DNA from: Thermoanaerobaculia bacterium
Lineage (GTDB): Bacteria > Acidobacteriota > Thermoanaerobaculia > Gp7-AA8
Direction: 5' to 3'
Length of the DNA stretch: 64,000 bases
Assembly (NCBI GenBank): GCA_038230535.1
Contig: JBBRNB010000019.1
Coordinates: 2,165-66,164, forward strand
The position numbers were made by a program, and so were the translations under genes. Positions 3,438 to 60,289 of the stretch are shown here, piece after piece (positions within the stretch are counted from its first letter, which is position 1; each line of letters opens with the position of its first letter). The notes under the pieces were generated by a model. It worked only from the letters and a program-made list of their open reading frames with translations, was not told the DNA's origin and ran no database searches.

Positions 3438-3666
3438 CGGGTCCAGGTAGAACAAGTTACGAGTGGAATGTCATCCCGCGGCATGCAGTCATCGAATCGA
3501 CTGGTCAACACGTTGACGAGTCAATAGGAGGTGTTGAGACAAGGCGATCCCGCGGCCGGGACGGGGATGGCCGGGATTCACGGGCCGGCTTGTCAGCAGC
3601 CACGAATGGGATCGCCATCTGACGGCGGCGTCGCTGAACACGGGTACGATCGAGCTCGACCCTCAC

Positions 3667-3899
3667 GAGAATCTCGCCGATATCCACGAACTTCTCGCCG
3701 ATGTCGACGAGAATCTCGCCGATGTCCGCAGACTATCTCGCCGATGTCCACGAGAATCCAGCGAATATTCACGACAATCTCGCGAATATTCACGAGAATC
3801 TTGCGAACATTGACGAGAATCTCGCGAATATCCACGAGAATCTCGCGAACATTGACGACCCCTCTCGCGGATGTCGGCGAACTTCCAGCCGGCATTCAC
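3667..3899. repeat. 11 tandem copies of a 21-bp unit (consensus GAGAATCTCGCGAATATTCAC, two subfamilies). Each unit holds two palindromes, CGAGAaTCTCG and GAATATTC.
   Basis: Direct reading of the intergenic region between the esterase stop (3972) and the uvrC start. The 21-bp period keeps all six frames open, which produces the spurious ORFs 3531..4063. Confidence 0.85.
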
Positions 3900-4595: not shown

Positions 4596-4623
4596 CCTTG
4601 AATCGTAGCTACAATGCGCCCGC

Positions 4624-5358
4624 GTGTCGCGCCTTACCCTCGTCGTTCCCTGCTACAACGAAGAGCGCCGGCTCGACGTGGAGGCTTTTCGGCGCGTTTC
4701 CGCCGGGGGCTGCGAAGTCGATTTCCTCTTCGTGAACGACGGCAGCCGGGACGGCACTCTCGGACTGCTCGAGAAGCTCCGCGACTCCGATCCGAAGCGC
4801 TTCGCCGTCTTGAATCTGGAGCGCAACAGCGGGAAAGCCGAGGCGGTGCGGCGCGGATTTGTCGCCGCGATGGAGCAACCAGCCGGCTATGTCGGTTTCT
4901 GGGATGCCGACCTGGCCACTCCCCTCGCCGAGCTTCCAGGCTTTCTCGACGTTCTGGAGTCGCGTCCGGCGATTCAGATCGTGATGGGATCCCGCGTCCG
5001 CCTCCTCGGCCGCGAGATCAGCCGCCGCCCTTCACGTCACTACGCCGGCCGCGTCGGTGCGACGCTGATCTCATCGACCCTCGGTCTGGCGGTCTACGAT
5101 ACTCAGTGCGGCGCGAAACTCTTCCGTACGAACGACACGCTTCGCGAGGTCTTCGCCACTCCGTTCCTCTCGCGCTGGATCTTCGACGTCGAGATCATCG
5201 CCCGATACGTCGAGCGCCTTGGCCGCGATGCCGTGGCCGGCGCAATCTACGAGTTACCCGTCACCCGCTGGCACGACGTGACCGGCTCCAAGGTCAAGTC
5301 GCACGACTTCCTGCGAGCGCTGCTCGATCTCTGGAAGATCCGGCGTGCGTATCGGTAG
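4624..5358 (+). CDS. Glycosyltransferase family 2 (dolichyl-phosphate mannose synthase-like)
   Basis: LTLVVPCYNEE...VNDGSRDGT...DAD motifs typical of GT-A fold GT2. Confidence 0.75.
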   Translation: MSRLTLVVPCYNEERRLDVEAFRRVSAGGCEVDFLFVNDGSRDGTLGLLEKLRDSDPKRFAVLNLERNSGKAEAVRRGFVAAMEQPAGYVGFWDADLATPLAELPGFLDVLESRPAIQIVMGSRVRLLGREISRRPSRHYAGRVGATLISSTLGLAVYDTQCGAKLFRTNDTLREVFATPFLSRWIFDVEIIARYVERLGRDAVAGAIYELPVTRWHDVTGSKVKSHDFLRALLDLWKIRRAYR

Positions 5359-5592
5359 ATCGGTGGATCAGAGGGTCGGTGGATCGGTAGATCGGTGGAT
5401 CAGAAGGGTCTGTGGATCGGTAGATCAGTAGATCGGTGGATCGGTGGATCAGAACCAGGTTGGCTCTGGTCAGAGGCAGTTGGTTCCGATCCACTGACCT
5501 ACTGATCTACTGATCCACTGACTCACATCCACCGACCGGCCGATCTACTGATCCACTGATCTACTGCTCCACCCGACTGATTTACAATCCCC
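5356..5592. repeat. GATC-rich inverted-array intergenic element. Left arm has repeated GATCGGTGGATCAG units; right arm has CTGATCCACTGATCTACTG units.
   Basis: The arms are reverse complements built from ~9-10-nt TGGATCAGT-like units and sit strictly intergenic. Same family as 15836, 21421, 23797, 26058 and 52003. Confidence 0.8.
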
Positions 5593-5596
5593 ATCG

Positions 5597-6874
5597 ATGA
5601 CTATCGCGCCACCTGCAACCACAAACGACAGCAGCCTCTCGAAACTCGCACTCGGACTGACCGGCTCCGAGATCCTGAAGATCTCCGGGGAGATCAGGTT
5701 GCTCTCCGAAGCAGGACGCGACATCTGCAACCTCACCGTCGGCGACTTCTCGCCGAAGGAGTTCCGGATCCCCCGAGTCCTCGAAGATCTGATCGCCGAG
5801 GCCTTTGCTGCCGGCGAGACCAACTACCCGCCATCGGATGGAACGAAAGAGCTGCGTCAGGCACTGATCCGTTTCTACGACGACGCCCTCGGCCTGAAGT
5901 ATCCGATCGAGTCGACGCTCATCGCCGGTGGCGCGCGGCCGATCATCTTTGCCGCGTATGCAGCGGTCGTCGATCCGGGCGACAAAGTCGTCTACACCAT
6001 CCCTTCCTGGAACAACGCCCACTACGTCTACCTCGTGCGCGGCGTACCGGTCGAGATCACCGTCGGACCGGAGACGAACTTCCTCCCCACCGCCGGCCTG
6101 CTGCGGCCGCACATCCGCGACGCGCGCCTCATCTGCATTTGCACCCCGCTCAATCCGACCGGCACCGTCATGGCGAAGGACGAAGTGGAGCGGATTGCCC
6201 GGCTCGTGGTTGATGAGAACGAGCGCCGTGCCGCGACTGGTGAGCGCGCGTTGTTGCTGATGTGGGATCAGGTTTACTGGATGCTGACCTTTGGCGGCTA
6301 CCATCACTACACGCCGCCGCAGCTCGTCCCCGAGGTCATGCCGTACACGATCTTTGTCGACGGGATCTCGAAATCGTTCGCCGCGACGGGGCTACGCGTC
6401 GGATGGACGGTCGCGCCGCCGGTGATCACAGCGAAGATGCGCGACATCCTCGGCCACGTCGGCGCCTGGGCACCGCGCCCCGAACAGATCGCCGTGGCGA
6501 GGTTCCTCGGTATGCGCAGCGCGATCGACGAATACCACGAAGGAATGATTCGCGAGCTGCAGCTCCGGCTCGATCTCCTCTATGACCGAATCGAAGCGAT
6601 GCGCTGCGACGGCCTCCCTGTCCGCGCCATCACGCCGCAGGGAGCGATCTATCTCTCCGCCCAGTTCGACCTCATCGGCCGGGGCGGCATCACCTCGAAC
6701 GAGCAGATCCGCCGCATACTCCTCGACGAAGCCGGCTTCGCCGTCGTTCCGTTCCAGGCATTCGGCTTACTGCAAGAGACAGGCTGGTTCCGTCTCAGCG
6801 CCGGCGCAGTGTCGCCGAGGGAGATAGAAGAGGGGTTGGCGCGGGTTCGGAGTGTGTTGGGAAGGTATGTTTGA
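5597..6874 (+). CDS. PLP-dependent aminotransferase class I/II (aspartate/aromatic aminotransferase-like)
   Basis: Fold-type I architecture with the SKSFAATGLRVGW lysine motif, ~425 aa. Confidence 0.75.
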   Translation: MTIAPPATTNDSSLSKLALGLTGSEILKISGEIRLLSEAGRDICNLTVGDFSPKEFRIPRVLEDLIAEAFAAGETNYPPSDGTKELRQALIRFYDDALGLKYPIESTLIAGGARPIIFAAYAAVVDPGDKVVYTIPSWNNAHYVYLVRGVPVEITVGPETNFLPTAGLLRPHIRDARLICICTPLNPTGTVMAKDEVERIARLVVDENERRAATGERALLLMWDQVYWMLTFGGYHHYTPPQLVPEVMPYTIFVDGISKSFAATGLRVGWTVAPPVITAKMRDILGHVGAWAPRPEQIAVARFLGMRSAIDEYHEGMIRELQLRLDLLYDRIEAMRCDGLPVRAITPQGAIYLSAQFDLIGRGGITSNEQIRRILLDEAGFAVVPFQAFGLLQETGWFRLSAGAVSPREIEEGLARVRSVLGRYV

Positions 6875-6875
6875 T

Positions 6876-6962
6876 GGGGAGTGGGGTGTGGGGTGTGGAG
6901 ACGCGAATATTGAATGTTCGATGTCTGCCTCCCACTCCCCACCCCCTACTCCCCACCCCCCG
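6876..6962. repeat. G-tract/C-tract inverted element. GGGGAGTGGGGTGTGGGGTGTGG on the + strand, ~30 nt spacer, then CCCACTCCCCACCCCCTACTCCCCACCCCCC (G4 motif on the minus strand).
   Basis: Direct reading. At least 4 runs of G3 or longer on each strand. A second copy sits at 52638..52716. Confidence 0.7.
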
Positions 6963-13015: not shown

Positions 13016-13080
13016 GTGTAGGGCCGCCGCCCCCGGCGGTCCGCGCAGCCGTCAGGCCGCCGGGGGCGGCGGCCCTACAC
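13016..13080. repeat. REP-like palindromic doublet GTGTAGGGCCGCCGCC(CCCGG)CGG...CCGCCGGGGGCGGCGGCCCTACAC
   Basis: Two self-complementary modules that are also reverse complements of each other. Same family as 20003, 31422, 47504 and 53426. Lies between the uvrB start and the stop of the upstream gene. Confidence 0.8.
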
Positions 13081-14853: not shown

Positions 14854-15834
14854 ATGAATCCAGTCCAACCCATCACAGTCGCGCAATACGGCATCGGCCC
14901 GATCGGTGCGGAGATCGCCCGCCTTCTGCTCACCAAACCATGGCTTCGCGTCGTCGCTGCGGTAGACGTCGATCCCAGCAAGATCGGCAAGGACCTCGGC
15001 GAGGTCATCGGTCTCGACCGCGAGGTTGGCGTCAGAGTCACTGCCGAGCTAACCGGTAATCCTGACGTCGTCTGCCACTCCACCGGTTCCCGGCTGCGCG
15101 ATGTCTCCGGCCAGCTCAAGGATCTGCTGACGCGCGGCTGTCACGTAGTCTCCACGTGCGAAGAGCTCTCCTTCCCTCTCGATCAGCAGATCCGCGAAGA
15201 GCTGCAGCAGATGGCGCGCGCAAAGAACGTGACGCTCCTCGGCACCGGCGTCAATCCGGGTTTCGTCATGGACAAGCTGCCGCTGACCATCACCTCAGTC
15301 TGCCAGCGCATCGACTCCGTGGAGATCATCCGTATCCAGAACGCCTCCACCCGGCGCGAGCCTCTGCAGCGCAAAGTTGGCGCCGGCATGACGCCGGACG
15401 AGTTCCGCGCCGCCGTCGCTGCCGGCAAGATCAAACACATGGGCCTCCGCGAGTCTCTGATGATGGTCGGCAAGGGCCTCGGCGCGGAGTTCGAGGAGGT
15501 CAGCGGCGAGGACATCCAACCAATCATCGCCGAGCGTGAAGTGGTCACGCAGTACCTCACCTGCGCTCCCGGCCAGGTCGCCGGTGTCCATCAGACCATC
15601 CGGGGCCGCGGCAAGATCAACGTCAGCCTGGAGCTGCGTATGTACGTCGGCGCCGAGGATGTGGCCGCCGATCGCGTGCTCGTGCATGGAGTGCCGGACG
15701 TCGAGATGGTCATCAAAGGCGGCGTCCACGGCGACCGCGCCACCGCGGCAATGGTGGTGAACGCGATCCCGCGCGTCGTCAGCGCCAAGCCGGGCGTGCT
15801 GACGATGGACGACATTCCGATCTCGTTCCGGTGA
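14854..15834 (+). CDS. NAD(P)-dependent amine dehydrogenase / DapB-like oxidoreductase family protein
   Basis: N-terminal Rossmann (AQYGIGPIGAEIARLL) and a C-terminal DapB-like domain. It resembles the 2,4-diaminopentanoate dehydrogenase / dihydrodipicolinate-reductase-like family. Confidence 0.5.
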   Translation: MNPVQPITVAQYGIGPIGAEIARLLLTKPWLRVVAAVDVDPSKIGKDLGEVIGLDREVGVRVTAELTGNPDVVCHSTGSRLRDVSGQLKDLLTRGCHVVSTCEELSFPLDQQIREELQQMARAKNVTLLGTGVNPGFVMDKLPLTITSVCQRIDSVEIIRIQNASTRREPLQRKVGAGMTPDEFRAAVAAGKIKHMGLRESLMMVGKGLGAEFEEVSGEDIQPIIAEREVVTQYLTCAPGQVAGVHQTIRGRGKINVSLELRMYVGAEDVAADRVLVHGVPDVEMVIKGGVHGDRATAAMVVNAIPRVVSAKPGVLTMDDIPISFR

Positions 15835-15835
15835 T

Positions 15836-15992
15836 GGAGTAGTGGAGTAGTGGATCAGTGATCGGTGGATCAGGCACAATTGCGCCCCACGCCTGAACCA
15901 AAGCCGCGTTCCGCATACCTGTCATCCAGGATGACAGGAAGGGCTTGGCCCTTGTTCCTGATCCACTGATCCACCTGTCACTGATCCACTGA
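15836..15992. repeat. GATC-rich inverted-array intergenic element (TGGAGTAGTGGAGTAGTGGATCAGTGATCGGTGGATCAGG ... CCTGATCCACTGATCCACCTGTCACTGATCCACTGACC). The loop contains the palindrome CCTGTCATCCaGGATGACAGG.
   Basis: Direct reading at a convergent gene junction. Confidence 0.8.
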
Positions 15993-16268
15993 CCCACGGA
16001 CACGCCGAATGTATGCGCAGACAGCCAGAGCGCTCAACCCCGTTACCAGCCAAAGTGCAATCCACCCCACCGGCGCCGATCGCATCCAGTTCCACAAAGC
16101 CAGCGTGATCGCCCAGAGACCGTAGACGAAGAGAAACATCCGGCGGTGACCGCGGTCGTCTTCGACACCGGCGGCGATGCTTCCGCCGAGGATCATCGTG
16201 GGGATGAGGCCGAAGACGATGTTCAGGATGTGAATCACGAAAGGGTCACGTCCGATACCGCACGTCAA
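15978..16268 (-). CDS. Small hydrophobic membrane protein, last gene of the rSAM/GT operon
   Basis: ~96 aa, 3 predicted TM helices. It overlaps the stop of the upstream rSAM gene. The start is uncertain. Confidence 0.35.
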   Translation of the reverse strand: MTCGIGRDPFVIHILNIVFGLIPTMILGGSIAAGVEDDRGHRRMFLFVYGLWAITLALWNWMRSAPVGWIALWLVTGLSALAVCAYIRRVRGSVDQ

Positions 16269-18263: not shown

Positions 18264-18381
18264 GGTAACGCCGCAGGAGACCCAATCCGCAGATGGCGCA
18301 GATTACGCAGAATGTGAATAGAAACGTCTCCTATTCTGTGTTCATCTGCGTAATCTGCGGATCAAGCTTTTGACTGTCGGA
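18264..18381 (-). other. Intercistronic 118-nt region with a long imperfect hairpin (CAGATTACGCAGAaTGTGAATAG...CTATTCTGTGTTCATCTGCGTAATCTG) between rSAM-2 and GT1
   Basis: Direct reading: ~20-bp stem with a nested 6-bp stem. It sits inside a same-strand operon. Confidence 0.55.
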
Positions 18382-20002: not shown

Positions 20003-20097
20003 GTGTAGGGCCGCCGCCTCGGCGGCCTGATTCTCACCCGCGAGAACCTGGCCGCCGAGGGCGGCGGCCCTACACACAGGGCGGCCCTACACACAGG
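20003..20097. repeat. REP-like palindromic doublet (GTGTAGGGCCGCCGCCTCGGCGGCC...GGCCGCCGAGGGCGGCGGCCCTACACA) with an extra partial arm
   Basis: Direct reading; same family as 13016. Confidence 0.8.
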
Positions 20098-21414: not shown

Positions 21415-21420
21415 GTTGCG

Positions 21421-21600
21421 TGTGGAGTAGATTAGTGGATTGGTAGCTCAGTCGATCAGGAACCCCAGCCGCGAAGTCTTGATTGGAGTCGATCACTGGA
21501 TCAGGCGATCCGTTGACCGGGAGTCCCCAGGTTCATTCCGACCGAGCTCCGTCGTCCTGATCCACTAATCTACTAACCTACTGATCCACTGATGGACTGA
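21421..21600. repeat. GATC-rich inverted-array intergenic element (divergent promoter region)
   Basis: TGGAGTAGATTAGTGGATTGGTAGCTCAGTCGATCAGG ... CCTGATCCACTAATCTACTAACCTACTGATCCACTGATGGACTG. Confidence 0.75.
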
Positions 21601-21607
21601 AAACTAC

Positions 21608-22831: not shown

Positions 22832-22835
22832 TGTG

Positions 22836-22993
22836 CCCTTGATTTCGCGCGAAGCGCTTTGGAGCGCGGTAGCCGTAGCTACCGCTTTCTGAAATTCTCT
22901 ACGAGATGTCGGACCAGTCGCGAGGCGCCCCCTCCCTCCCAAAGCGGTGGCTGCGGCCACCGCGCACTCCAAGCGCTTCGCGCGAAATCAAGC
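22836..22993. repeat. Long-range inverted repeat with ~33-bp arms (CTTGATTTCGCGCGAAGCGCTTTGGAGCGCGG / CCGCGCACTCCAAGCGCTTCGCGCGAAATCAAG). It encloses two internal hairpins (CGGTAGCcgtaGCTACCG and GCGGTGGctgcggCCACCGC).
   Basis: Direct reading between convergent genes: GT2 end at 22831 and hydrolase stop at 22997. Confidence 0.65.
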
Positions 22994-22996
22994 TGG

Positions 22997-23791: not shown

Positions 23792-23796
23792 GAGAG

Positions 23797-23925
23797 TCGA
23801 TCGGTGATCAGTAGATCAGTGATCAGAGGAGCAGTGGATCAGGACAGAGGTTGACTCAGTGGTACTTAGAAGAGAAACACCGCCTTCTGACCCACTCATT
23901 GCGAATCCACTGATCGACTGATCCA
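23797..23925. repeat. GATC-rich inverted-array intergenic element
   Basis: GATCGGTGATCAGTAGATCAGTGATCAGAGGAGCAGTGGATCAGG ... GAATCCACTGATCGACTGATCCATC. Confidence 0.75.
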
Positions 23926-25020
23926 TCACACGTTGAAGCGGAAGAGGATCACGTCCCCGTCCTGTACCACGTAATCCTTTCCTTCGCTTCGCATCTTCCC
24001 GGCTGCCTTTGCGGCCTGCTCTCCACCGAGGGAAACGTAATCGTCGTACCCAATCGTTTCGGCCCGGATGAAACCGCGCTCGAAATCGCTGTGAATCTTT
24101 CCTGCTGCCTGTGGACCCTTCGAGCCGCGAGGAATCGTCCATGCGCGCGCTTCTTTTGGTCCCGCGGTGAAGAATGTCTCGAGCTCCAGGAGTGTGTACG
24201 CGGCGCGGATCAGGATGTTGAGGCCCGGCTCATCGAGACCCATCTCCGCCAGAAAACCGTCGCGCTCGCCGGGTGGGAGTTGCGAGATCTGCGCCTCGAG
24301 CTCGCCGCAGATAACGACGACCTCTCCTTTCTTCTTCGCAGCCACGTTCCGGACCTGTTGCAACAACGGCGTCTCGCTGCCGAGGTCTGACTCCGCGACA
24401 TTCGCCACGTAGAGCACAGGCTTCAGCGTGATGAGACTCAGCTCGGCCAGCGCCGCGCGTTCGTCGTCGGTGAGGTCGACTGCGCGCAGCGGCGTCCCTT
24501 CATCGACCGCGGCCTTCGCCTTTTCGAGCGCCTCGGCTTGTGCGATGTACTCCTTCTGACCGACCCGAGCGAACCTGCTGACGCGGTCGAGTTTCTTGCT
24601 GATGGCATCGAGATCGGCCAGCAACAGCTCGGTCTCGATCACCTCGATGTCACGCTCCGGATCGACCGATCCCTCGACATGCATGACGTTCGGATCGTCG
24701 AAGCATCGCACCACGTGCAGGATGGCGTCGGTCTCGCGTATGTTGGCAAGGAACTGGTTGCCGAGCCCCTCCCCTTTCGACGCGCCCCGCACGAGTCCGG
24801 CGATGTCGACGACTCTGAGGTCGGTGTAGACAGTTTGTTTGCTCTGCGCAAGTGCCACGAGCTTGTCGAGCCGCGCATCGGTGACCGGAACGATGCCGAC
24901 GTTCGGCTCGATCGTGCAGAAAGGATAGTTGGCGCTCTGAGCCCCAGCAGCCGTGAGCGCGTTAAAGATCGTCGACTTGCCGACATTCGGCAGCCCGACG
25001 ATTCCGACAGAAAGACCCAT
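23926..25020 (-). CDS. ychF: Ribosome-binding ATPase YchF (Obg-family GTPase/ATPase)
   Basis: [24 protein letters not shown]1 motif, C-terminal TGS domain, 364 aa. Confidence 0.95.
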
Positions 25021-26039: not shown

Positions 26040-26057
26040 CGACGCGTAGTGTGGCAT

Positions 26058-26224
26058 GAATCAGTGGAGCAGTGGAGCAGTGGAGCAGTCGATCTGTAAT
26101 CAGGCGGCCTGATTCTATCGACCAATCCACTGATCCACTGATCCACTGATCGACTTCTCTACAGTCGATCCGTAGTCAGGAAGCCTGATTCTGATCGACC
26201 AATCCACTGATCCACTGATCGACT
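26058..26224. repeat. GATC-rich inverted-array intergenic element, tandem double copy (CAGTGGAGCAGTGGAGCAGTGGAGCAG ... CCACTGATCCACTGATCCACTGATCGAC, then a second partial copy)
   Basis: Direct reading. The loop has the palindrome AATCAGGCGGCCTGATT. Confidence 0.75.
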
Positions 26225-31391: not shown

Positions 31392-31421
31392 GTAGTGTCG
31401 CTGAAAAAGTCCAGTGTAGGG

Positions 31422-31451
31422 CCGCCGCCTCGGCGGCCCTTTTCTTGTTTG
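31422..31451 (+). terminator. Rho-independent terminator (GGGCCGCCGcctcGGCGGCCC + TTTTCTTGTTT); single-module REP-family copy
   Basis: GC-rich 9-bp stem and a T-tract immediately after the M16 stop. Confidence 0.8.
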
Positions 31452-39050: not shown

Positions 39051-39996
39051 GTTGAAGGCAGAAAGCAAAAGGATGAAAGCAGAAGTCATGAATACGATGA
39101 CGCGCCGCATGGAGCGATCTGGTCAGCGGAGACGCAGCCTGACGAGTGCGCTCTTCTGCCTTCTGCTTTCTGCCTTCTGCCTTTCCGCTGCCGCACAGGA
39201 TGACCGTTACACGCCGGCCAAACAGGTGCCGCTCGGCGATCTGCTCCTCTCGCTGCCAACCTCACATATCCCGTCCGAGGGGACGTGGGAGATCAAGTTC
39301 ACGCACCGGTTCAACCAGTCGCTCGACCAGGGAAGCTTCAGTGACCGCGTGCATTCGCTATGGGGACTCGACAGCAACGTCGACGTAGGAATCGGCCTGT
39401 CGTACGTGATCAACCGGGATCTGCAGGCTACGTTCGTGCGAAGCAACGTCAACGACGACATCGAGTCATCATTCAAGTATGTGGTCATGCAGCAGGCGCC
39501 TGCGATCCCGTTCTCTCTGGCGTTGCGAGGCGGGATGGACTGGCGGACGGAGCGCGACCTTCGCGATCGCACCTCATTCTTCGGTCAGGCCATCATTTCG
39601 CGGCAGTTCGGCGGCCGGGCTGAGATTTTCCTGATGCCAACGTACGTGACGAATGCCGGACGTGCCGTCAACGGTACGACGTCGGCAGCGCTCTTCAAAC
39701 ATGCTGTGAACGTACCGATCGGCGGCGCGGTAATGATCAGGCCTGGACTCAGCATCGTCGGAGAATTCACTCCGAAGAACCGTGACCTCCCGTCAACGAT
39801 GAAGAAGGGGGATTTCGGTTGGGCGCTCGGACTCAAGCGCGCCATCGGCGGTCACTACTTCGAGATCCTGTTGACGAACAGCAACGCCACGCATACCGAC
39901 CAGTACGTCACATCGACGTACCAGGGCTCGCCGTTGAACAAGAGTGATATTCATCTTGGGTTCGACATCGAGCGCCGTTTCGGCAGCCGGCACTAG
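39043..39996 (+). CDS. Hypothetical secreted/outer-membrane protein (possible beta-barrel), coupled to the upstream lipoprotein
   Basis: Signal peptide (RRRSLTSALFCLLLSAFCLSAAAQ) and an alternating beta-strand pattern. The start is ambiguous (ATG at 39043, 39071 or 39098). Confidence 0.45.
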   Translation: MTELKAESKRMKAEVMNTMTRRMERSGQRRRSLTSALFCLLLSAFCLSAAAQDDRYTPAKQVPLGDLLLSLPTSHIPSEGTWEIKFTHRFNQSLDQGSFSDRVHSLWGLDSNVDVGIGLSYVINRDLQATFVRSNVNDDIESSFKYVVMQQAPAIPFSLALRGGMDWRTERDLRDRTSFFGQAIISRQFGGRAEIFLMPTYVTNAGRAVNGTTSAALFKHAVNVPIGGAVMIRPGLSIVGEFTPKNRDLPSTMKKGDFGWALGLKRAIGGHYFEILLTNSNATHTDQYVTSTYQGSPLNKSDIHLGFDIERRFGSRH

Positions 39997-47480: not shown

Positions 47481-47503
47481 CCGTAGCGCTTGTTGTTTCT
47501 GGT

Positions 47504-47577
47504 GTAGGGCCGCCGCCCTCGGCGGCCGGGCTCTTGTGCCGCGGGAAGATGGCCGCCGAGGGCGGCGGCTCTACACG
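47504..47577. repeat. REP-like palindromic doublet between convergent orn and rbfA
   Basis: GTGTAGGGCCGCCGCCCTCGGCGGCC ... GGCCGCCGAGGGCGGCGGCTCTACAC. Confidence 0.8.
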
Positions 47578-47600
47578 AGATGCGGGACCTGATCCTGACA

Positions 47601-50096: not shown

Positions 50097-50228
50097 GGTG
50101 GAGTCTAACGTGCGCGTAGCGCCGGCGGCCTCGCCGGCTGGCCCGCCGCCGGCTCGGCGGCGACTCTCAACAATCGCCAGCGGGCCGCTGGCGGTCCAGC
50201 CGGCGGGCCGCCAGCGCTACGGGGACCC

Positions 50229-51968: not shown

Positions 51969-52002
51969 GGTTGGTGGTTGCTCTCCGTCAGTACGCAAAC
52001 AG

Positions 52003-52110
52003 CAGATCAGTGATCGGTAGATCGGCAATCAGGACAAGCCGCATATTCCTGATCCACTGATCTACTAATCCACTGATCTACTGATCACCGATCTTCTGAT
52101 CACCGATCAA
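52003..52110. repeat. GATC-rich inverted-array intergenic element (compact copy) with a short loop containing AAGCCGCATATTCCTG
   Basis: CAGATCAGTGATCGGTAGATCGG ... CCTGATCCACTGATCTACTAATCCACTGATCTACTGATCACCGATC. Confidence 0.75.
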
Positions 52111-52611
52111 ATACCTTTCCTTATATTCGAGATAGCTCCGCCACGACTGCTCCAGCCGCACGATCTCGTCGATGCGAAGTTCGCGCTTGACGCGGGCGGG
52201 AACGCCGACGGCAAGCGTACGCGGCGGGATTTCCATCCCCTCCCCCACCAGCGCACCGGCACCGACCAGAGCTAGCTCGCCGACGCGCGCGCCGTCGAGT
52301 ACGCGTGATCCCATCCCGATCAGCGCGCCTCGCCCGATCGTGCATCCGTGCACGATGGCCCCATGCCCGATCGTGACCTCCTCGGCGATGTCGATCGGAA
52401 ACGTCCCGTTCGTGACATGGAGGACGCAGTTGTCCTGGATGTTCGTCCGCGCACCGATGCGGATCGAGTGCACGTCCCCGCGCAGCACCGCGCCGTACCA
52501 GATCGAGCAGTCATCGCCGAGCGCGACGTCGCCAACGAGCGTGGCATTCTCGGCGATGAAAACACGCTGTCCGAGGCGCGGCGACTTGCCATCGTAGGAT
52601 CGGAGAATCAT
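52078..52611 (-). CDS. Gamma-class carbonic anhydrase family / hexapeptide-repeat (LbH) protein (PaaY/CaiE-like)
   Basis: ~177 aa left-handed beta-helix with hexapeptide repeats and conserved His ligands (NCVLHV...IGHGAIVHGC). The track lists a 503-aa read-through ORF. Confidence 0.8.
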   Translation of the reverse strand: MILRSYDGKSPRLGQRVFIAENATLVGDVALGDDCSIWYGAVLRGDVHSIRIGARTNIQDNCVLHVTNGTFPIDIAEEVTIGHGAIVHGCTIGRGALIGMGSRVLDGARVGELALVGAGALVGEGMEIPPRTLAVGVPARVKRELRIDEIVRLEQSWRSYLEYKERYLIGDQKIGDQ

Positions 52612-52637
52612 GTTGGAGACTGTATCAGGTGGTTCGG

Positions 52638-52716
52638 GTGTGGGGAGTGGGTTGTAGAGGGTGCGCTTAACCCTGACGTAACTCCCACACCCCACACCCC
52701 ACCCCCCACTCCCCCC
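52638..52716. repeat. G-tract/C-tract inverted element, second copy (GTGTGGGGAGTGGG ... CCCACACCCCACACCCCACCCCCCACTCCCCCC); strong G4 motif on the minus strand
   Basis: Direct reading in the divergent intergenic region between the gamma-CA and DUF1211 genes. Confidence 0.7.
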
Positions 52717-52731
52717 AGCTACAATCTCCCC

Positions 52732-53421: not shown

Positions 53422-53425
53422 GAAA

Positions 53426-53497
53426 GTGTAGGGCCGCCCCCTCGGCGGCCTTGCCCTGATTCGCAAGATGATGGCCGCCGGGGCGGCGGCCCTACAC
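53426..53497. repeat. REP-like palindromic doublet between convergent DUF1211 and MFS genes
   Basis: GTGTAGGGCCGCCCCCTCGGCGGCC ... GGCCGCCGGGGCGGCGGCCCTACAC. Confidence 0.8.
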
Positions 53498-54706
53498 TCA
53501 CGACTTCCACAGCCTCCACGTCCACGCGCCCCAGACGAGCGACCAGAGCACGCAGACCGAGGCAACGCCGGCGGTGGCAGCCATCGCACCGAAGCGGTCG
53601 GCGGCGATGCCGGCGACGAGGCTGGAAATACTCATCGTCAGCGTGACGAAGCCGTAGTCGGCGCCGAAGACGCGGCCTCGGATCCAGTCAGGCGTTTCGC
53701 GCTGAAGACCGTACGTCGATGTCTGCCACTGCGCGCCCCCGCCGAGGTGCGCGGCGAAGACGGCGAATGAGCCAACCAGCAGAGTGCGTGAGAGGCCGAG
53801 CGCCATGTATCCCGCTCCGAAGAGGAAGACGGACGCGGCGATGAGGCGGTATTGGAGATCGCCCTTCCGCCCGGCCATGGCACGAATCAGGAACGGGCCG
53901 AGCAGCGCGCCCACTCCGCGCGCGGCAAAGAGAAGTCCGATGCCGAAAGCGCCTGCGCGAAAGACTTCCCTGCCGAAGACGCCGAGCATGGCCACCACGC
54001 CGGCACCGAGTCCGTAGCCGCCTTTCGACGTCAGCAGCGCCAGGACGCGCGGATGGGCGCGGGCGTAGCGCAGCGTCTCTCGCGTCGACTCGATGAGCGC
54101 CGGGCGTTCGTGATGAGCAGCCCGCTCCTCGGCGAATTGTGCGCGCATCCGCCAGAGAATCCCTGCCGAGGCCACGAAGCTCAGCGCATCGACAACAAAG
54201 GAGACATCGCGGCCGAAGCGCATCGTTACCAGGCCGCCCAGCGCAGCACCGACGGCGAGCATCGTCCCCCACGTCGATCCCATCAGCACATTCGCCGCGG
54301 AGAGCTCGCTCCCATCGACCAGATTCGGCAGCGCTGACTGCGACGCCGGCTCGAAGTACGCCGAGCCAACGGAGATGAGAATCACGCCTGCGTATGCGAA
54401 CGGCAGCATCGCCGGCGTGCGTGCCAGCAACGGCAGCAGGCACGCGCCGGCGCGGATCAGGTCGACCACGATCATCAGCTTGCGGCGGTCGGCGTGATCG
54501 ACGGTGTGTCCAGCGACCGGCGTCACCAGAAATATCGGAAGCGACTGGCAGAGCAACATCAGCGAGGCCAGCGTGGCCGAGCCGGTGAGCTGGAGCACGA
54601 GATCGAGCAGAGCGACGGTGAGAAACCAGTCCCCCCCGAGGGAGATCAGCGAGCCCAAGTACAGCAGCCGGAAATCGCGGTTGTTGCGGAGGAGCCGCCA
54701 GTACAT
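53498..54706 (-). CDS. MFS transporter
   Basis: 12 predicted TM helices and a GRxxDRxGRR-like loop (DHADRRKLM). 402 aa. Confidence 0.8.
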   Translation of the reverse strand: MYWRLLRNNRDFRLLYLGSLISLGGDWFLTVALLDLVLQLTGSATLASLMLLCQSLPIFLVTPVAGHTVDHADRRKLMIVVDLIRAGACLLPLLARTPAMLPFAYAGVILISVGSAYFEPASQSALPNLVDGSELSAANVLMGSTWGTMLAVGAALGGLVTMRFGRDVSFVVDALSFVASAGILWRMRAQFAEERAAHHERPALIESTRETLRYARAHPRVLALLTSKGGYGLGAGVVAMLGVFGREVFRAGAFGIGLLFAARGVGALLGPFLIRAMAGRKGDLQYRLIAASVFLFGAGYMALGLSRTLLVGSFAVFAAHLGGGAQWQTSTYGLQRETPDWIRGRVFGADYGFVTLTMSISSLVAGIAADRFGAMAATAGVASVCVLWSLVWGAWTWRLWKS

Positions 54707-55467: not shown

Positions 55468-56037
55468 ATGCTGATTCCGATGGAGAGAGGTTTCGATCCC
55501 GCATCAAAGGCACTCTCGTCGTTCGTCGCTTTGGACTTCGAGACGGCGAACCGGGATTTCGGCTCTGCGTGTGCTATTGCGGCGGTCCAGGTATTGTCCC
55601 GAGAAGTCGTGCGAAGGCTCAAATTCGTACTGAACCCTGGGCCCGTTACGTTCGAATTTGCGGAAATTCATGGCATCACGCGGGAGCTGGCATCCGCTGG
55701 TGTGACGTTTGACCTCGCGTGGCGCGAGATCGAGCCACTGATTCGCGAAACAGGGTTCATTGTCGTAGCACACAACGCGAAGTTCGACAGGAGGGTCCTT
55801 CAAGCAACGGCACGCCGCCACACGGTACGCCTGCCAAAGGTGCGATTCATCTGCTCGCGGAATCTTGCAGAAGCAGTCTGGGGTCTGCGCCCAAACGATC
55901 TTGCGACGGTTGCTGCGTATCTCGGCATCCCGCTGGTTCATCACGATCCTCTCTCCGACGCCGAGGCTGCCGCGCGAATCGTACTTGCCGCGGAAGACGA
56001 AAAGCTCGCTCGGCTTGCGAAGGAGGTACAAGCGTGA
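55468..56037 (+). CDS. DnaQ-like DEDDh 3'-5' exonuclease (stand-alone), first gene of the cas operon
   Basis: Exo I ALDFETAN, Exo II VAHNAKFD, Exo III HHDPLSDAEAAARI. The TGA stop overlaps the GTG start of cas3. Confidence 0.75.
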   Translation: MLIPMERGFDPASKALSSFVALDFETANRDFGSACAIAAVQVLSREVVRRLKFVLNPGPVTFEFAEIHGITRELASAGVTFDLAWREIEPLIRETGFIVVAHNAKFDRRVLQATARRHTVRLPKVRFICSRNLAEAVWGLRPNDLATVAAYLGIPLVHHDPLSDAEAAARIVLAAEDEKLARLAKEVQA

Positions 56038-58712
56038 AGAACGCGCCTCAGTACTACCGTTACTGGGGAAAGGCACAGGGCGATTCTCCGGAGTCGTGGC
56101 ATCCACTCGTCTACCACATGCTGGAGGTTGGTGCCGTTTGTGAGATTTTCCTCGAACACGACAGAACGATCGTCAGGTCGGTCACACGGTCGAGTGGTCT
56201 CACGGAGAGCAGCGTCCGGAGCTTTCTTCCATTTCTCGCCGCCGTTCACGATCTGGGAAAGTTCGCCGGGAGCTTTCAGGATCTGAAACCGGAGATCGTC
56301 TCGAAGCTCCATGGCTCGCGTAGCGTCTCTCCGTACACAGTGAGGCACGATCGGCTGGGCTACGTTTTCTGGAGTGACGTTCTCAGTCGCCGAAGTTGGG
56401 ACAGCGGCTGGCCACTCGCGGCTGTCGATGACAGGGACGACTGGGACTTCGCCGTGTATCGTGACGCGATGGATCCATGGCTTCGTGCAGCAACTGGACA
56501 TCATGGACAGCCGCCTGGGATCAGTGCCCTAAAACCTGCGTCACAGTCGTTCTCGGCGACGGCATGCAACGACGCGATACAATTCGTTCGTGACCTGATG
56601 AACATTCTCCGGCCGCAACCGTTACTCTTTCGCGACGCGTACTCAGCGGAGTCTGCGCTGAACACTTCGGCCTGGTCAGTAGCGGGCCTTACAGTGCTCT
56701 GTGACTGGATCGGCTCAAATCAGAAGTGGTTTGAGTATTGCGCTGACGTCGTCCCGCTTGAGGAGTACTGGACGCGATCCCTCGGTAAGGCCCGGGATGC
56801 TGTGAGACAGACGGGCATTCTGCCGAGTCGCGTATCATCGAATCTGGGTATGGGTGCGCTTTTCCCGTCCTTTGAGCCCAGCCCTCTTCAGACATGCGTT
56901 GAAACGGTATTTCTCGGTGACGGACCCCAGCTTCTGATCGCGGAAGAGATCACAGGGAGTGGCAAGACCGAAGCCGCGCTCATTCTCGCGCACCGAATGA
57001 TCGATGCCGGACTCGCTGACGGGATCTACATCGCTCTACCGACGATGGCAACAGCCAACGCCATGCACGGCCGGCTTGACTCGAAGTACAAGCTTCTATT
57101 CGATGATGGCGAGCCTGCATCGCTTGTGTTGACTCACAGCGCTCGCCATCTCGACGATGCAGCATCGGACCACTGCACTGTGTGGCTGGCCGACCATAGG
57201 AAAAAGGCTCTGCTCTCGCAAGTCGGAGCCGGGACGGTCGACCAGGCCCTGCTCGGCGTTCTTCCTTCGAAACACAATGTGCTTCGCCTGCTAGGACTCC
57301 AGCGCAACGTTCTCATTGTCGATGAGGTCCATGCATATGACTCATACGTGAGCCGGATACTCGAGCGGCTGCTCGAGTTCCACGCGGCTCTCGGCGGCAG
57401 TGCGATTCTGCTGAGCGCTACGCTGCCGAAGCCGGTGCGTCAGCGATGTGTCAATGCATTCTCAAAGGGCCTTGGGCGCAAGCCTCCGCAACTCGGTCAG
57501 GATGCCTATCCTCTTCTGACACAGGTTGGCGGTGATGGCTTGTCGGAGATCCCACTCGAAACGCGCAGCGGCTCACGGCGGCAGGTGAAGGTGGAGTTTC
57601 TGGAATCCTATGATGCTGCTGTAGAGGCGATCGTGAATGCCGTGATGCGGGGACGCTCCGCCTGTTGGATTCGCAACAGCGTGGTCGATGCGATCGAGGC
57701 CTACGAAACGATCGCGAACCGGCTCGGCGGGCACATCGTCACGCTATTCCATGCGCGCTTCATGATGGGAGATCGCCTGGCGGCTGAACGGGACGTCGTG
57801 AACCGGTTTGGTCCATCAAGCGGGCACGCGGAGCGCGGCGGAAGAGCCGTGATCGCGACGCAGGTGATCGAACAGTCGCTTGATCTCGACTTTGACGTGA
57901 TGGTGTCGGATCTGGCACCGATCGATCTGCTGATTCAGCGTGCGGGACGGCTCCAACGCCACACCCGCACCGAAGAAGGAGACAGGACGGCGGGAGTCGA
58001 ACAGCGGTCTGCTCCGGTTCTGCAGATTCTCGCTCCGCGCTGGAGCGAAGAGCCGGAGCCGGAATGGCTTACCGCACTGCTGCCCAGAACCGCGCGCGTC
58101 TACGGGCACGTTGGTCAGCTCTGGCTTTCAATGCGAATTCTCCTCGACCGCGGCTGCATCGCGCTCCCGGATGACGCGCGTCTACTCATCGAATCCGTTT
58201 TCGGAGACGATGCCTGGGACCGAGTCCCTGAAGGTCTTGGTAACGCTTCCCGCAAGTTCGAAGGAGAGCAGAGCGCGAAAGCCTCACTTGCGGGATTCAA
58301 CGCGCTCGTGCTCCGCGATGGATACAAGAGCACGCCCGCTCATTGGATTGAGGATACAGTGACTCCCACACGCCTGAGCGAGCCGACGACGACGGTGCGC
58401 CTGGCGCGGCGTAGCAATGGAACCCTCGCTCCGCTGTTCGATCACGCAAAATATCCGTGGGACATGAGCCAAGTCTCTGTCAGGCGCGCACTGGTCGCCA
58501 ATCGGTCAGCCAGCTCACCGGAAGAAGAACGAATGGTTAAGGATGCCGAGGAGTTGATGCGCGACAAAGGCAAGTGGAGTTTGACTCTGGTCGTCGAGCC
58601 GGCAGTCCCAAGCGGGTGGCGTGGACGGGCTCTCGACGCGGGCGGTAACCCTGTCGAGACCCGATATGACCAACGTCTCGGTCTTCTCATCCGAAAGGAA
58701 GTAGATCAATGA
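56034..58712 (+). CDS. cas3: CRISPR-associated helicase/nuclease Cas3 (type I-E; HD nuclease + SF2 helicase)
   Basis: N-terminal YYRYWGK (E. coli Cas3-like), HD motif HDLGKF, Walker A GSGKTEAAL, DEVHAYD box. ~892 aa from the GTG at 56034 with an AAGGAGG RBS. The listed 997-aa ORF includes an out-of-context N-terminal extension. Confidence 0.9.
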   Translation: MKNAPQYYRYWGKAQGDSPESWHPLVYHMLEVGAVCEIFLEHDRTIVRSVTRSSGLTESSVRSFLPFLAAVHDLGKFAGSFQDLKPEIVSKLHGSRSVSPYTVRHDRLGYVFWSDVLSRRSWDSGWPLAAVDDRDDWDFAVYRDAMDPWLRAATGHHGQPPGISALKPASQSFSATACNDAIQFVRDLMNILRPQPLLFRDAYSAESALNTSAWSVAGLTVLCDWIGSNQKWFEYCADVVPLEEYWTRSLGKARDAVRQTGILPSRVSSNLGMGALFPSFEPSPLQTCVETVFLGDGPQLLIAEEITGSGKTEAALILAHRMIDAGLADGIYIALPTMATANAMHGRLDSKYKLLFDDGEPASLVLTHSARHLDDAASDHCTVWLADHRKKALLSQVGAGTVDQALLGVLPSKHNVLRLLGLQRNVLIVDEVHAYDSYVSRILERLLEFHAALGGSAILLSATLPKPVRQRCVNAFSKGLGRKPPQLGQDAYPLLTQVGGDGLSEIPLETRSGSRRQVKVEFLESYDAAVEAIVNAVMRGRSACWIRNSVVDAIEAYETIANRLGGHIVTLFHARFMMGDRLAAERDVVNRFGPSSGHAERGGRAVIATQVIEQSLDLDFDVMVSDLAPIDLLIQRAGRLQRHTRTEEGDRTAGVEQRSAPVLQILAPRWSEEPEPEWLTALLPRTARVYGHVGQLWLSMRILLDRGCIALPDDARLLIESVFGDDAWDRVPEGLGNASRKFEGEQSAKASLAGFNALVLRDGYKSTPAHWIEDTVTPTRLSEPTTTVRLARRSNGTLAPLFDHAKYPWDMSQVSVRRALVANRSASSPEEERMVKDAEELMRDKGKWSLTLVVEPAVPSGWRGRALDAGGNPVETRYDQRLGLLIRKEVDQ

Positions 58713-60289
58713 GTCCATACAACCTGCTTGCGGAACAATGGATCCGAGTCCGTCGCGCATCAGGATTGTTAGATTGGATTGCGCCATGGCAGATCGCGGA
58801 GATCGACGATCCGGCCATGAGGATCGAGAGCCCCCGTCCCGATTTCGACGGCGCGCTGATCCAGTTCCTGATTGGGCTGGTGCAGACGGCAGCCGCACCG
58901 GCAACAAAGATAGCTTGGCGCAAACTGCTAGATCACGCTCCCCAGGATCTGCGTGAGAAGTTCGATGGCGTCGCGGAGGCATTCAACCTCGACGGCCCGG
59001 GCCCGCGGTTCATGCAGGATCTGACACTGAAATCCTCCGACGTTGATGGGACAAAGCCGGTCAGTGCTCTCCTGATCGATGCGCCGGCTGAATTCTTCGT
59101 GAAGCCGGGACTGGTGTGCGCGATAAGCTATCCGATGGCCGCAATTGCTCTGTACACGTTGCAGGCCAATGCTCCGAGTGGCGGCGTGGGGCACCGCACG
59201 TCGCTCCGTGGTGGCGGCCCGCTGACAACCGTGATTCTCGGCGATACCCTGTGGCGCACTGTGTGGCTCAACGTAATGACAGAGGATGATTTCATCGGAG
59301 GGCCCGGAAACTCAGATCGCGATCAAGCCGGAGCCAAGTTCCCGTGGATGGCGCTCACACGCACGAGCGCGAAGCAGGGTGGCCGGTCAACGACGCCTGA
59401 AGACGCGCATCCCCTTCAACACTACTGGGGAATGCCACGTCGTATCCGACTGAATTTCGATGATACGGCCACAGGGCGCTGCGACTTGTCCGGTGTAGAG
59501 GCAACGCTCGTTACAAACTACATCACGAAGAATTACGGCACGAACTATGAGGGAGCATGGATTCATCCGCTCACACCTTACACGCTGCAGAAGGAAGGAC
59601 AACCGCCGAATCCGAAGAAGGGGCAGCCGGACGGCATTCCCTATCGTGACTGGCCGCAGCTCGTGCTTGCGGGCAAAGAACGCCTCCGCGCACGAGTCGT
59701 CGCTGTATACGAGAGCGACCGTCGCTTCGAGCAGCAGGCGTCACCGCAGTTATGGGTGTTCGGCTACGACGTCGACAACATGAAACCACGCTGCTGGTAC
59801 TCGGGCACCACCCCAATTTTCCCGCTCGCTGAAGAGCGGCACCAGCGGGCGTACGCCGGCCGGATGCAGCAATGTATCGACGCGAGCGAGGACGTTCGAA
59901 AGACGATGATTCAGCAGCTCAAGGCAGCACTGCTGCGCAGACCGCAGGATCGCAACGGAGATCTGTCGTTCCTGTCTCGGCAGTTTTGGGCTGATACCGA
60001 GTCCCGATTTTTCGGCGTTGCGCGACGAATTCACGATGCAATTGTCGATAACTCGGACGACAGTCAGGCGCGGGAGGAATGGCTGGCCGCGATTCATCGC
60101 GCCGCGCTTCGGATCTTCACCTTGAACTCACAGGAGGCTGGCGAATTCGCGGATGCCGACGTGAAGCGGATCGCCGTCGCATGGAACAACCTCATTCAAT
60201 TTACGTCGCCGCGTAGCAAGAAGCTCCGCGGCATCGTCGATCTTGCGCCTGTCCCGGATGCAAAGGATCAAGGAGGAACAGATGTCTGA
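58709..60289 (+). CDS. cse1: Cse1/CasA (Cas8e) large subunit of Cascade
   Basis: NLLAEQWIRVR, similar to E. coli CasA N-terminal NLLIDNWIPVR. LRGGGPLTT resembles LRGGTPVTT. ATGA overlap with cas3. Confidence 0.88.
   Translation: MSPYNLLAEQWIRVRRASGLLDWIAPWQIAEIDDPAMRIESPRPDFDGALIQFLIGLVQTAAAPATKIAWRKLLDHAPQDLREKFDGVAEAFNLDGPGPRFMQDLTLKSSDVDGTKPVSALLIDAPAEFFVKPGLVCAISYPMAAIALYTLQANAPSGGVGHRTSLRGGGPLTTVILGDTLWRTVWLNVMTEDDFIGGPGNSDRDQAGAKFPWMALTRTSAKQGGRSTTPEDAHPLQHYWGMPRRIRLNFDDTATGRCDLSGVEATLVTNYITKNYGTNYEGAWIHPLTPYTLQKEGQPPNPKKGQPDGIPYRDWPQLVLAGKERLRARVVAVYESDRRFEQQASPQLWVFGYDVDNMKPRCWYSGTTPIFPLAEERHQRAYAGRMQQCIDASEDVRKTMIQQLKAALLRRPQDRNGDLSFLSRQFWADTESRFFGVARRIHDAIVDNSDDSQAREEWLAAIHRAALRIFTLNSQEAGEFADADVKRIAVAWNNLIQFTSPRSKKLRGIVDLAPVPDAKDQGGTDV

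Follow-up and report, generated by a model that had tools for sequence, protein, structure and literature searches.

Intergenic hairpins with arms of tandem 8-nt units in a Thermoanaerobaculia genome: candidate relatives of REP-type extragenic palindromes

The 64-kb stretch of bacterial DNA analyzed here (the window; ~62% G+C, with proteins closest to those of Thermoanaerobaculia (Acidobacteriota) metagenome-assembled genomes (MAGs)) carries six intergenic elements in which a run of short tandem units is followed, after a spacer, by a run of the reverse-complement unit. On balance we take these elements to be extragenic palindromes of the kind known as repetitive extragenic palindromic (REP) sequences, bacterial interspersed mosaic elements (BIMEs) and REP doublets forming hairpins (REPINs), whose arms consist of 8-nt units in tandem (GT[GA]GATC[AG] in phase). 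The octamer family is the commonest of several array-armed hairpin families in this genome, and these families together with a classical REP-like family fill its intergenic gaps. At orthologous junctions of close relatives the elements are gained, lost and replaced, and both the number and the variants of the units change rapidly, block duplications included. An earlier reading, made from the sequence only, had listed the six loci as one family of GATC-rich inverted arrays. The loci exist as described and no further full copies of the octamer unit were found in the window; the family is extragenic and multi-copy, as proposed, and it is not an isolated element, since it shares its architecture with other unit families.

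The unit period was taken from Tandem Repeats Finder, genes were called with a home-made codon-score finder and the window proteins were scanned against Pfam. In every arm the period was 8 nt, occasionally 7 (e.g. TGATCAG), and the unit of ~9-10 nt suggested earlier was thus a misreading. The octamer consensus is T[GA]GATC[AG]G in the left arm and C[CT]GATC[CT]A in the right arm, and at all six loci the order is the same, i.e. a run of forward units, a spacer and then a run of reverse-complement units. The arms hold 2-12 units and whole elements measure 108-237 nt. GGATCAGT was counted 13 times in the window as compared to 2.1 expected, and 13 was reached in 0 of 100 shuffles. The limits given by the sequence-only reading were kept for copies 1, 4, 5 and 6, and shifted for copy 2 (to 15835-15997) and copy 3 (to 21421-21595):

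5356-5592, no strand assigned: copy 1, the largest, with ~12 left units (5356-5452), an inner loop (5453-5485) and ~10 right units.
15835-15997, no strand assigned: copy 2, the reported locus, with left arm 15835-15873 (5 units) and right arm 15958-15997 (5 units).
21421-21595, no strand assigned: copy 3, between two divergent GT2 genes, with degenerate arms and a 93-nt loop.
23797-23925, no strand assigned: copy 4, between the ychF stop (23926-23928), which it adjoins, and a hydrolase gene whose start (23791) is 5 nt away.
26058-26224, no strand assigned: copy 5, consisting of two hairpin modules in tandem (26058-26155, 26163-26224).
52003-52110, no strand assigned: copy 6, with a short left arm, a 14-nt loop and a long right arm.

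The right arm is the reverse complement of the left, as had been noticed, and on folding the arms pair into long hairpins (z -2.06 to -12.65, computed against dinucleotide shuffles of each region). For four copies the fold is well beyond what shuffled sequence gives (z -6.4 to -12.7), and for two it is weak. The most stable was copy 1 (region 5350-5596, dG -145.5 kcal/mol, z -12.65), with module 1 of copy 5 (26056-26160, z -7.32), copy 6 (52000-52112, z -6.52) and copy 2 (15832-15999, z -6.44) behind it, whereas copy 4 (23795-23928, z -2.74) and copy 3 (21415-21605, z -2.06) gave weak folds. The loop of copy 2 (15874-15957) contains two small hairpins, and the loop palindromes quoted by the earlier reading are present; as a second dispersed family, the loop palindrome CCTGTCATCC was not above chance in the window.

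Four of the copies lie at co-directional junctions, one at a convergent and one at a divergent junction, so that all three junction types reported earlier are represented. Five of the six start 0-2 nt past a stop codon or overlap the stop, three finish 1-6 nt ahead of a start codon as called, and a strong hairpin of some kind is found in most window gaps of at least 80 nt. Copy 1 is set between a GT2 gene stop (5358) and a TACAAT box (5583), with the aminotransferase start at 5597. Copy 2 begins 1 nt past the stop of a DAP_DH-like gene, and its outer 20 nt (15978-15997) are the 3' end of a convergent 96-aa open reading frame (ORF; 15978-16268, minus strand). Both genes flanking copy 4 (ychF and the hydrolase gene) are on the minus strand, as are those at copy 5, which separates the stop of a dinB-family gene (26227) from the glucokinase start (26057). 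Copy 6 lies upstream of aspS (start 51968, minus strand), and its outer right-arm units (52078-52110) form the last 11 codons of a gamma-CA-like gene (52078-52611, minus strand). The claim that copies never lie inside genes was therefore nearly right, failing only for the outer right-arm units of copies 2 and 6, which code for last codons. Since two ORFs end inside array units, the arrays can add or alter C-termini and mislead gene callers. The gamma-CA-like protein has an array-encoded C-terminus that reads ...LIGDQKIGDQ before the stop, and in the related locus L184 a GT2 start was called inside an array. Beside copy 3, comparison with the related locus L187 suggests that the true start is ~30 nt further upstream.

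Complementarity of the arms is preserved, with changes in one arm being matched in the other. When L182 (GGTTGCC/GGCAACC) was compared with L184 (GGGTTGCT/AGCAACCC), the arms had changed together (C:G to T:A) in every unit, and these arm versions all fold almost perfectly. Tandem Repeats Finder also reported higher-order periods of 16 and 32 nt in the arms, among them a 32-nt period in the left arm of copy 1, and whole modules occur in tandem (two in copy 5, three in L188), which together indicate block duplication. A ~190-nt segmental duplication was seen in L188 (16360-16670), which carries the first uvrB codons together with an octamer element's left arm and loop, and it creates a 54-aa pseudo-ORF. 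Transition differences between arms result in G.U pairs on one strand only. Two Chloroflexota MAGs, L085 (6335-6470) and L101 (2625-2775), combine a left arm of TGGGTCAG with a right arm of CTGATCTA, so that every difference is a G.U pair on one strand. Folding energies of the two strands are 31-37 kcal/mol apart, and the strand favoured in L085 is the one antisense to the genes on either side. Strand-specific G.U pairing was considered as evidence for a role in RNA and rejected, as the antisense strand folds better in L085, L068 and L086 and the count across genomes is 13 sense to 9 antisense.

Inverted arrays of unrelated 7-9-nt units (TGGGGTG, GCAGAAG, AATGTTG, GGGTTGCT and CACAAAG) are present in the window and in Thermoanaerobaculia relatives. 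When arrays with a reverse-complement array behind them were searched for de novo, many unrelated units turned up in octamer-carrying genomes and in Thermoanaerobaculia relatives, with 5 inverted array pairs in 21 kb of L183 and 3 in L184, as compared to 1 pair in ~600 kb of unbiased control loci from diverse bacteria. The control set consisted of loci from a YchF-based metagenome scan, which returned distant relatives and one close locus (L105) with broken synteny. Orthologous loci were reached via the aminotransferase and DAP_DH-like proteins, and L086 was met by chance. The junctions compared were:

DAP_DH 3' junction (the reported locus): octamer element in the window; GATC-free variant in L189 (92% at the amino acid level; z -5.3); CACAAAG-family hairpin in L188 (89%); 0 nt in L187 (90%), where two stop codons abut.
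ychF/hydrolase junction: in L086 an octamer element with other unit variants (TGGATTAG three times), other numbers and an unrelated loop.
GT2/aminotransferase junction: 12+10 units in the window; 4+4 in L183; a right-arm remnant in L182; one unit in L185; another palindrome in L184.
Divergent GT2 pair (copy 3): insert of ~195 nt in the window; 21-nt gap in L187.
uvrB start: REP and one leftover unit in the window; GGGTTGCT arrays in L182-L185; octamer arrays in L188.
Divergent 209-aa/GT2 junction: 190-215-nt AATGTTG element in L183 and L184; empty in the window, L182 and L185.

At the ychF/hydrolase junction the flanking DNA is 81% identical between the window and L086. The AATGTTG element in L183 and L184 is placed exactly between back-to-back -10-like boxes (ATCGTAG followed directly by CTACAAT), and its unit recurs at another junction in L074. 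Array density differs between close genomes, from ~8 in 19 kb of L188 to none in 21 kb of L187. In L188, two CACAAAG elements at different junctions are ~92% identical over arms and loop, with unrelated flanks, and for this class the near-identical pair is direct evidence of whole-hairpin copying to new sites.

Outside the clade, a scan for three consecutive octamer units, with one genome per species, gave at least 100 loci. Among the matches listed, inverted pairs were found in Thermoanaerobaculia/Acidobacteriota (18), Acidimicrobiia-type actinobacterial MAGs (14), Chloroflexota (10), Bacteroidota (3) and the Planctomycetes-Verrucomicrobia-Chlamydiae (PVC) group (1). The octamer is found at several loci per genome both in relatives and in other phyla. 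Within the same list, the complement lies downstream of the octamer array in 46 of 47 pairs and upstream in 1 (within 350 nt), and a strict count of polarity gave 26:0. Thermoanaerobaculia contributed 18 inverted pairs to the matches listed as compared to 5 solo arrays, and the listed hits in Streptomyces, Proteobacteria and Gemmatimonadota were mostly inside long ORFs and are a different thing. In a collection of 2.9 million viral contigs a single octamer-array hit was obtained, hence phage carriage is almost nil. The fixed arm order and the cross-phylum unit are without explanation in any account that lacks a sequence-specific step.

The elements share several properties with REP, BIME and REPIN sequences (PMC2817692, PMC3116915, PMC3333891, PMC3733652), as they are extragenic, high-copy and hairpin-forming, lie mostly just after coding regions, and occur as inverted dimers and tandem clusters with lineage-specific expansions; the GT[AG]G tetranucleotide contained in the unit is a possible further similarity. 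REP stems are single palindromes of 5-13 bp with the GTAG tag outside the stem (PMC3733652), whereas the arms here are arrays of up to ~100 nt. Every unit has a GTGG or GTAG, which is here paired with the opposite arm, and by a rough estimate the tetranucleotide is expected by chance in ~12% of 8-mers. Unlike REPIN populations, which share the whole sequence, the copies have neither a loop consensus nor a full-length consensus, whereas a REP sequence is a short imperfect palindrome (20-40 nt) with a consensus over its full length. The elements are in this sense an unnamed variant of REP-type hairpins. This is in line with the earlier failure to recognise a named element, as the whole window gave no Rfam match at gathering score (relaxed thresholds gave only far-sub-threshold generic-hairpin hits to eukaryotic miRNA-precursor models), a literature search found no match to the literal repeat sequence, and no name was found among named inverted-tandem-repeat classes. 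Resemblance of the unit to a DnaA box or a CsrA site was dropped as unsupported.

The closest published analogue is the set of GGGAATC heptamer pairs in Xanthomonas, where 70-75 convergent, stem-loop-capable pairs were described whose position and pair type are kept between related genomes and whose length varies (Rehm et al. 2015, PMC4692102). Both repeats are intergenic with one dominant unit at many loci, and also here position is kept and length is variable at the ychF (L086), GT2/aminotransferase and DAP_DH 3' (L189) junctions. The present unit differs in being 8 nt rather than 7, in not being G-quadruplex-prone and in having a self-complementary core; moreover, several unit families coexist, the phylum is another one, and elements are replaced by other families and by REP. 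We know of no mechanism for either kind of array. Long simple sequence repeats (SSRs) of 5-11-nt units, including cyanobacterial heptamers and TAACTGA, have a sporadic phylogeny and are mostly intergenic, with one dominant unit per genome and with unit sharing across phyla left unexplained, as summarised in a later article (Mrazek 2007 via PMC4679880). Those arrays are mostly solitary and direct, whereas the arrays in Thermoanaerobaculia are mostly paired hairpins of fixed polarity. The cyanobacterial heptamers are known elsewhere as short tandemly repeated repetitive (STRR) sequences.

How such elements might arise can be outlined as follows. A hairpin seed would reach new junctions by REP-type copying, for which an HUH/Y1 transposase is the obvious candidate, and Y1 "TIRYT" transposase genes are reported in Acidobacteria (PMC3733652). 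The arms would then lengthen and shorten through replication slippage, and their matching could be maintained by intra-strand template switching, by selection for pairing, or by both. Slippage and quasipalindrome correction are established processes, and together with the anatomy of the repeats they are what suggests these two steps. Once transcribed, a stem-loop at a gene end might form a barrier to 3'-exonucleases and to read-through between transcription units. By analogy with REP sequences and from their position, the elements may thus protect the upstream mRNA and insulate neighbouring units.

Several observations weigh against this reading. Neither RAYT/Y1, nor another transposase, nor a reverse transcriptase was found among the window proteins scanned against Pfam, and E. 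coli rayT, a weak probe, had no homologue by tblastn in the 1.5 Mb of loci that were fetched. Copy numbers of the two arms are only weakly correlated (Spearman 0.24, p 0.16). In co-directional cases across genomes the better-folding strand was sense in 13 and antisense in 9, and pairing is therefore not demonstrably selected on mRNA. The octamer copies share only the unit and often an inner boundary (ATCAGG...CCTGAT), not the loop or the stem base. Finally, at some empty sites there is a unit-like stretch by the promoter box (GATCCACTACAAT in L187, CTGATCTACAAT in all orthologues of copy 1), which agrees with growth in place and equally with an older element in decay.

Because of these unit-like seeds, growth in place remains a serious rival. 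According to this explanation, which we regard as possible if rather improbable, there is no mobility, and a native hairpin or chance unit is amplified by slippage with its arms matched by template switching; the shared octamer would reflect a mutational preference, for example a self-complementary GATC core favouring slipped mini-hairpins. The graded series at one junction, which runs from one unit (L185) through remnants (L182) and 4+4 units (L183) to 12+10 (window), is what it would predict, and the unique stem bases outside the arrays (e.g. GAAAGGC...GCCTCTC), the higher-order periods and the dominance of 7-nt repeats in bacteria, attributed to polymerase slippage (Mrazek 2007 via PMC4679880), point the same way. 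It does not account for one 8-mer at many non-orthologous junctions and in four phyla, for the 46:1 polarity (matches listed), which is unexpected from independent births, for different families at one junction in close relatives, for 190-215-nt insertions where relatives have 0-21 nt, or for the two CACAAAG copies that are near-identical over the whole element. Somewhat less probable is that the elements are selected RNA elements, either factor-independent "I-shaped" terminators or intercistronic processing or stabilizing hairpins, in which repeats are the cheapest way to a long stem. Like intrinsic terminators they place a stable stem-loop directly after stop codons (5 of 6 copies) and could act both ways at convergent junctions; the compensatory arm changes, the strong hairpins in most larger window gaps and the better folding of the sense strand at 8 of 10 co-directional junctions tested in the window agree with such a role. 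The earlier proposal of a terminator does not hold in its canonical form, since no T-run follows the stems at any of the six copies, and a hairpin-plus-T scan of 15-27 kb gave 7 sites where 7.3 were expected, all of them away from the elements. This lack of canonical terminators nearby fits the REP-type reading and is also what an unconventional terminator would predict, and hairpin terminators lacking a U-tract are reported for high-GC bacteria. Unlike intrinsic terminators, however, the stems are far longer and have no T/U tail; the elements are found between divergent promoters as well, in a position (upstream of both -10 boxes) that does not require transcription; the sense strand is not favoured across genomes, the antisense strand folding much better in L085, L068 and L086; and close relatives such as L187 dispense with the elements.

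[quoted passage not shown] Inverted arms of fixed polarity, a terminal unit (AGTCGATC...GATCGACT) that recurs in several copies and genomes, and the presence of insertion polymorphism would suit it. Three filled/empty junctions gave no clear target-site duplication, the best candidates being an ambiguous GCTA and flanks that resemble each other diffusely; internal sequence is not conserved, the loops being unrelated between copies; the outer ends are the most degenerate part; no autonomous partner or transposase was found among the window proteins scanned; and the near absence from viral contigs speaks against it as well. Of the MITE/REP-like mobile family put forward earlier, the REP-like half is thus the best reading and the classical MITE half fails for want of target-site duplication and shared internal sequence. 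The elements could also be scars of polar repeat addition, where a templated or slipping polymerase extends both 3' ends at a break or stalled fork, which are then joined via the GATC core. We give this very little credence: it would explain the strict order of 5' array and 3' complement, the recurrence of one unit across many loci, the weak coupling between arm lengths and the zero-loop centres (CAGTACTG) in actinobacterial MAGs, but loops of 15-120 nt with their own hairpins, unique stem bases common to both arms and whole-element copies are unexpected, no reverse transcriptase or similar enzyme was seen, and the mechanism is entirely hypothetical in bacteria. More broadly, we tentatively raise the possibility that a polar, unit-specific process common to at least four phyla has left the arrays behind, which would make them a new class of array-armed mobile hairpins that compete with REPs for slots between genes. 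One candidate would be an unrecognised structure- and sequence-specific enzyme, either HUH/Y1-like or a templated repeat-adding polymerase, planting and extending the octamer on the 5' arm of each strand. If true, such a process accounts for the 46:1 polarity, the lineage bursts, the replacement of families at a single junction and the occurrence of one unit in Acidobacteriota, Actinomycetota, Chloroflexota and Bacteroidota. Least probable of all is the clustering of GATC sites, suggested earlier as Dam/MboI-type, for Dam-type methylation, a SeqA/MutH-like binder or a restriction system. GATC is indeed 5.4-fold denser in the elements (54 per kb) than outside (10 per kb), but the observed/expected ratio is 0.96 genome-wide (the same neutral figure is given for the whole window), many units have no GATC (TGGAGTAG, TGGAGCAG, TGGATTAG), the L189 orthologue of the reported locus is GATC-free and still folds, sister families of the same architecture lack GATC, and the scanned window proteins included nothing Dam-like. 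GATC clustering as the purpose of the elements is thereby already largely refuted, and GATC is incidental, a by-product of the unit sequence. As a separate observation on tetranucleotides, CTAG is strongly avoided in the whole window (11 observed vs 63 expected, ratio 0.17) and TTAA is also low (0.41).

Short-unit repeats at hundreds of intergenic sites, such as the cyanobacterial heptamers, GGGAATC in Xanthomonas and TAACTGA in Beggiatoa, have been without a mechanism for more than a decade. The present clade is unusually rich and fast-evolving, with several unit families beside REPs, clear filled and empty sites, a strict arm order and a cross-phylum octamer, and with this combination, existing MAGs and metagenome reads allow a direct test of whether the elements originate by mobility, by slippage or by addition through an enzyme. 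In practical terms, the elements break assemblies, extend or truncate ORF calls and overlie promoter regions of probable leaderless genes.

Other arrays and hairpins in the window were:

6875-6961, no strand assigned: TGGGGTG/CCCCACC inverted array at the aminotransferase stop/psiE junction, z -6.60.
52633-52716, no strand assigned: second, weaker array of the TGGGGTG family at a divergent junction, its right arm adjoining the TACAAT box at 52720, z -2.30.
39055-39183, no strand assigned: GCAGAAG/CTTCTGC inverted array upstream of a DUF5777 gene, z -4.28.
18264-18381: inverted array of a CGCAGAT-type 9-mer.
1512-1616: GTCGGG-type quasi-array.
13016-13080, no strand assigned: REP-like hairpin (GTGTAGGGCCGCCGCC...) at the uvrB-start junction, with one leftover unit (GCAACCCAC) adjoining.
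13016-13080, 20003-20092, 31414-31426, 47498-47580 and 53425-53498: the five loci of the classical REP-like family GTGTAGGGCCGCCGCC, GC-rich hairpins.

The TGGGGTG element at 6875-6961 is absent from relatives at that junction, and its loop holds 15 nt identical to the AATGTTG-family unit of relatives. Heads of the REP-like family (GTGTAGGGCCGCCGCC) were represented by 9 exact matches and 1 with one mismatch among 13 hits, against 1.7 expected, and the family (GTGTAGGGCCGCC...) and the arrays fill the same kind of junction in the window.

TACAAT boxes are found at 4610, 5583 and 52720 (also 14821), 7-9 nt before start codons, a spacing that suggests leaderless mRNAs. The box at the end of copy 1 lies 8 nt before the aminotransferase ATG and is conserved in all relatives. 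As right arms of the arrays end directly at TACAAT boxes, any -35 region would fall inside the repeat. No sigma-70 consensus promoter was matched in 15-27 kb, including inside arrays, and the conserved TACAAT boxes are located immediately beyond the right arms. The motif CTACAATGCGC is found repeatedly, both in the window and in relatives.

Two long unique palindromes were also seen, at 22832-22996 (convergent junction, z -9.4), with perfect 22-nt outer arms, and at 50097-50228 (co-directional, z -8.6). At 3664-3849, in the 516-nt gap after uvrC, there is a 21-nt tandem repeat with ~9 copies (CACGAGAATCTCGCCGATATC), which could either encode a heptad-repeat peptide (HENLADI...) or form an array of binding sites. 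Towards the end of the window (55719-60286), cas3 (HD plus helicase) followed by cse1 marks the start of a type I-E CRISPR-Cas operon.

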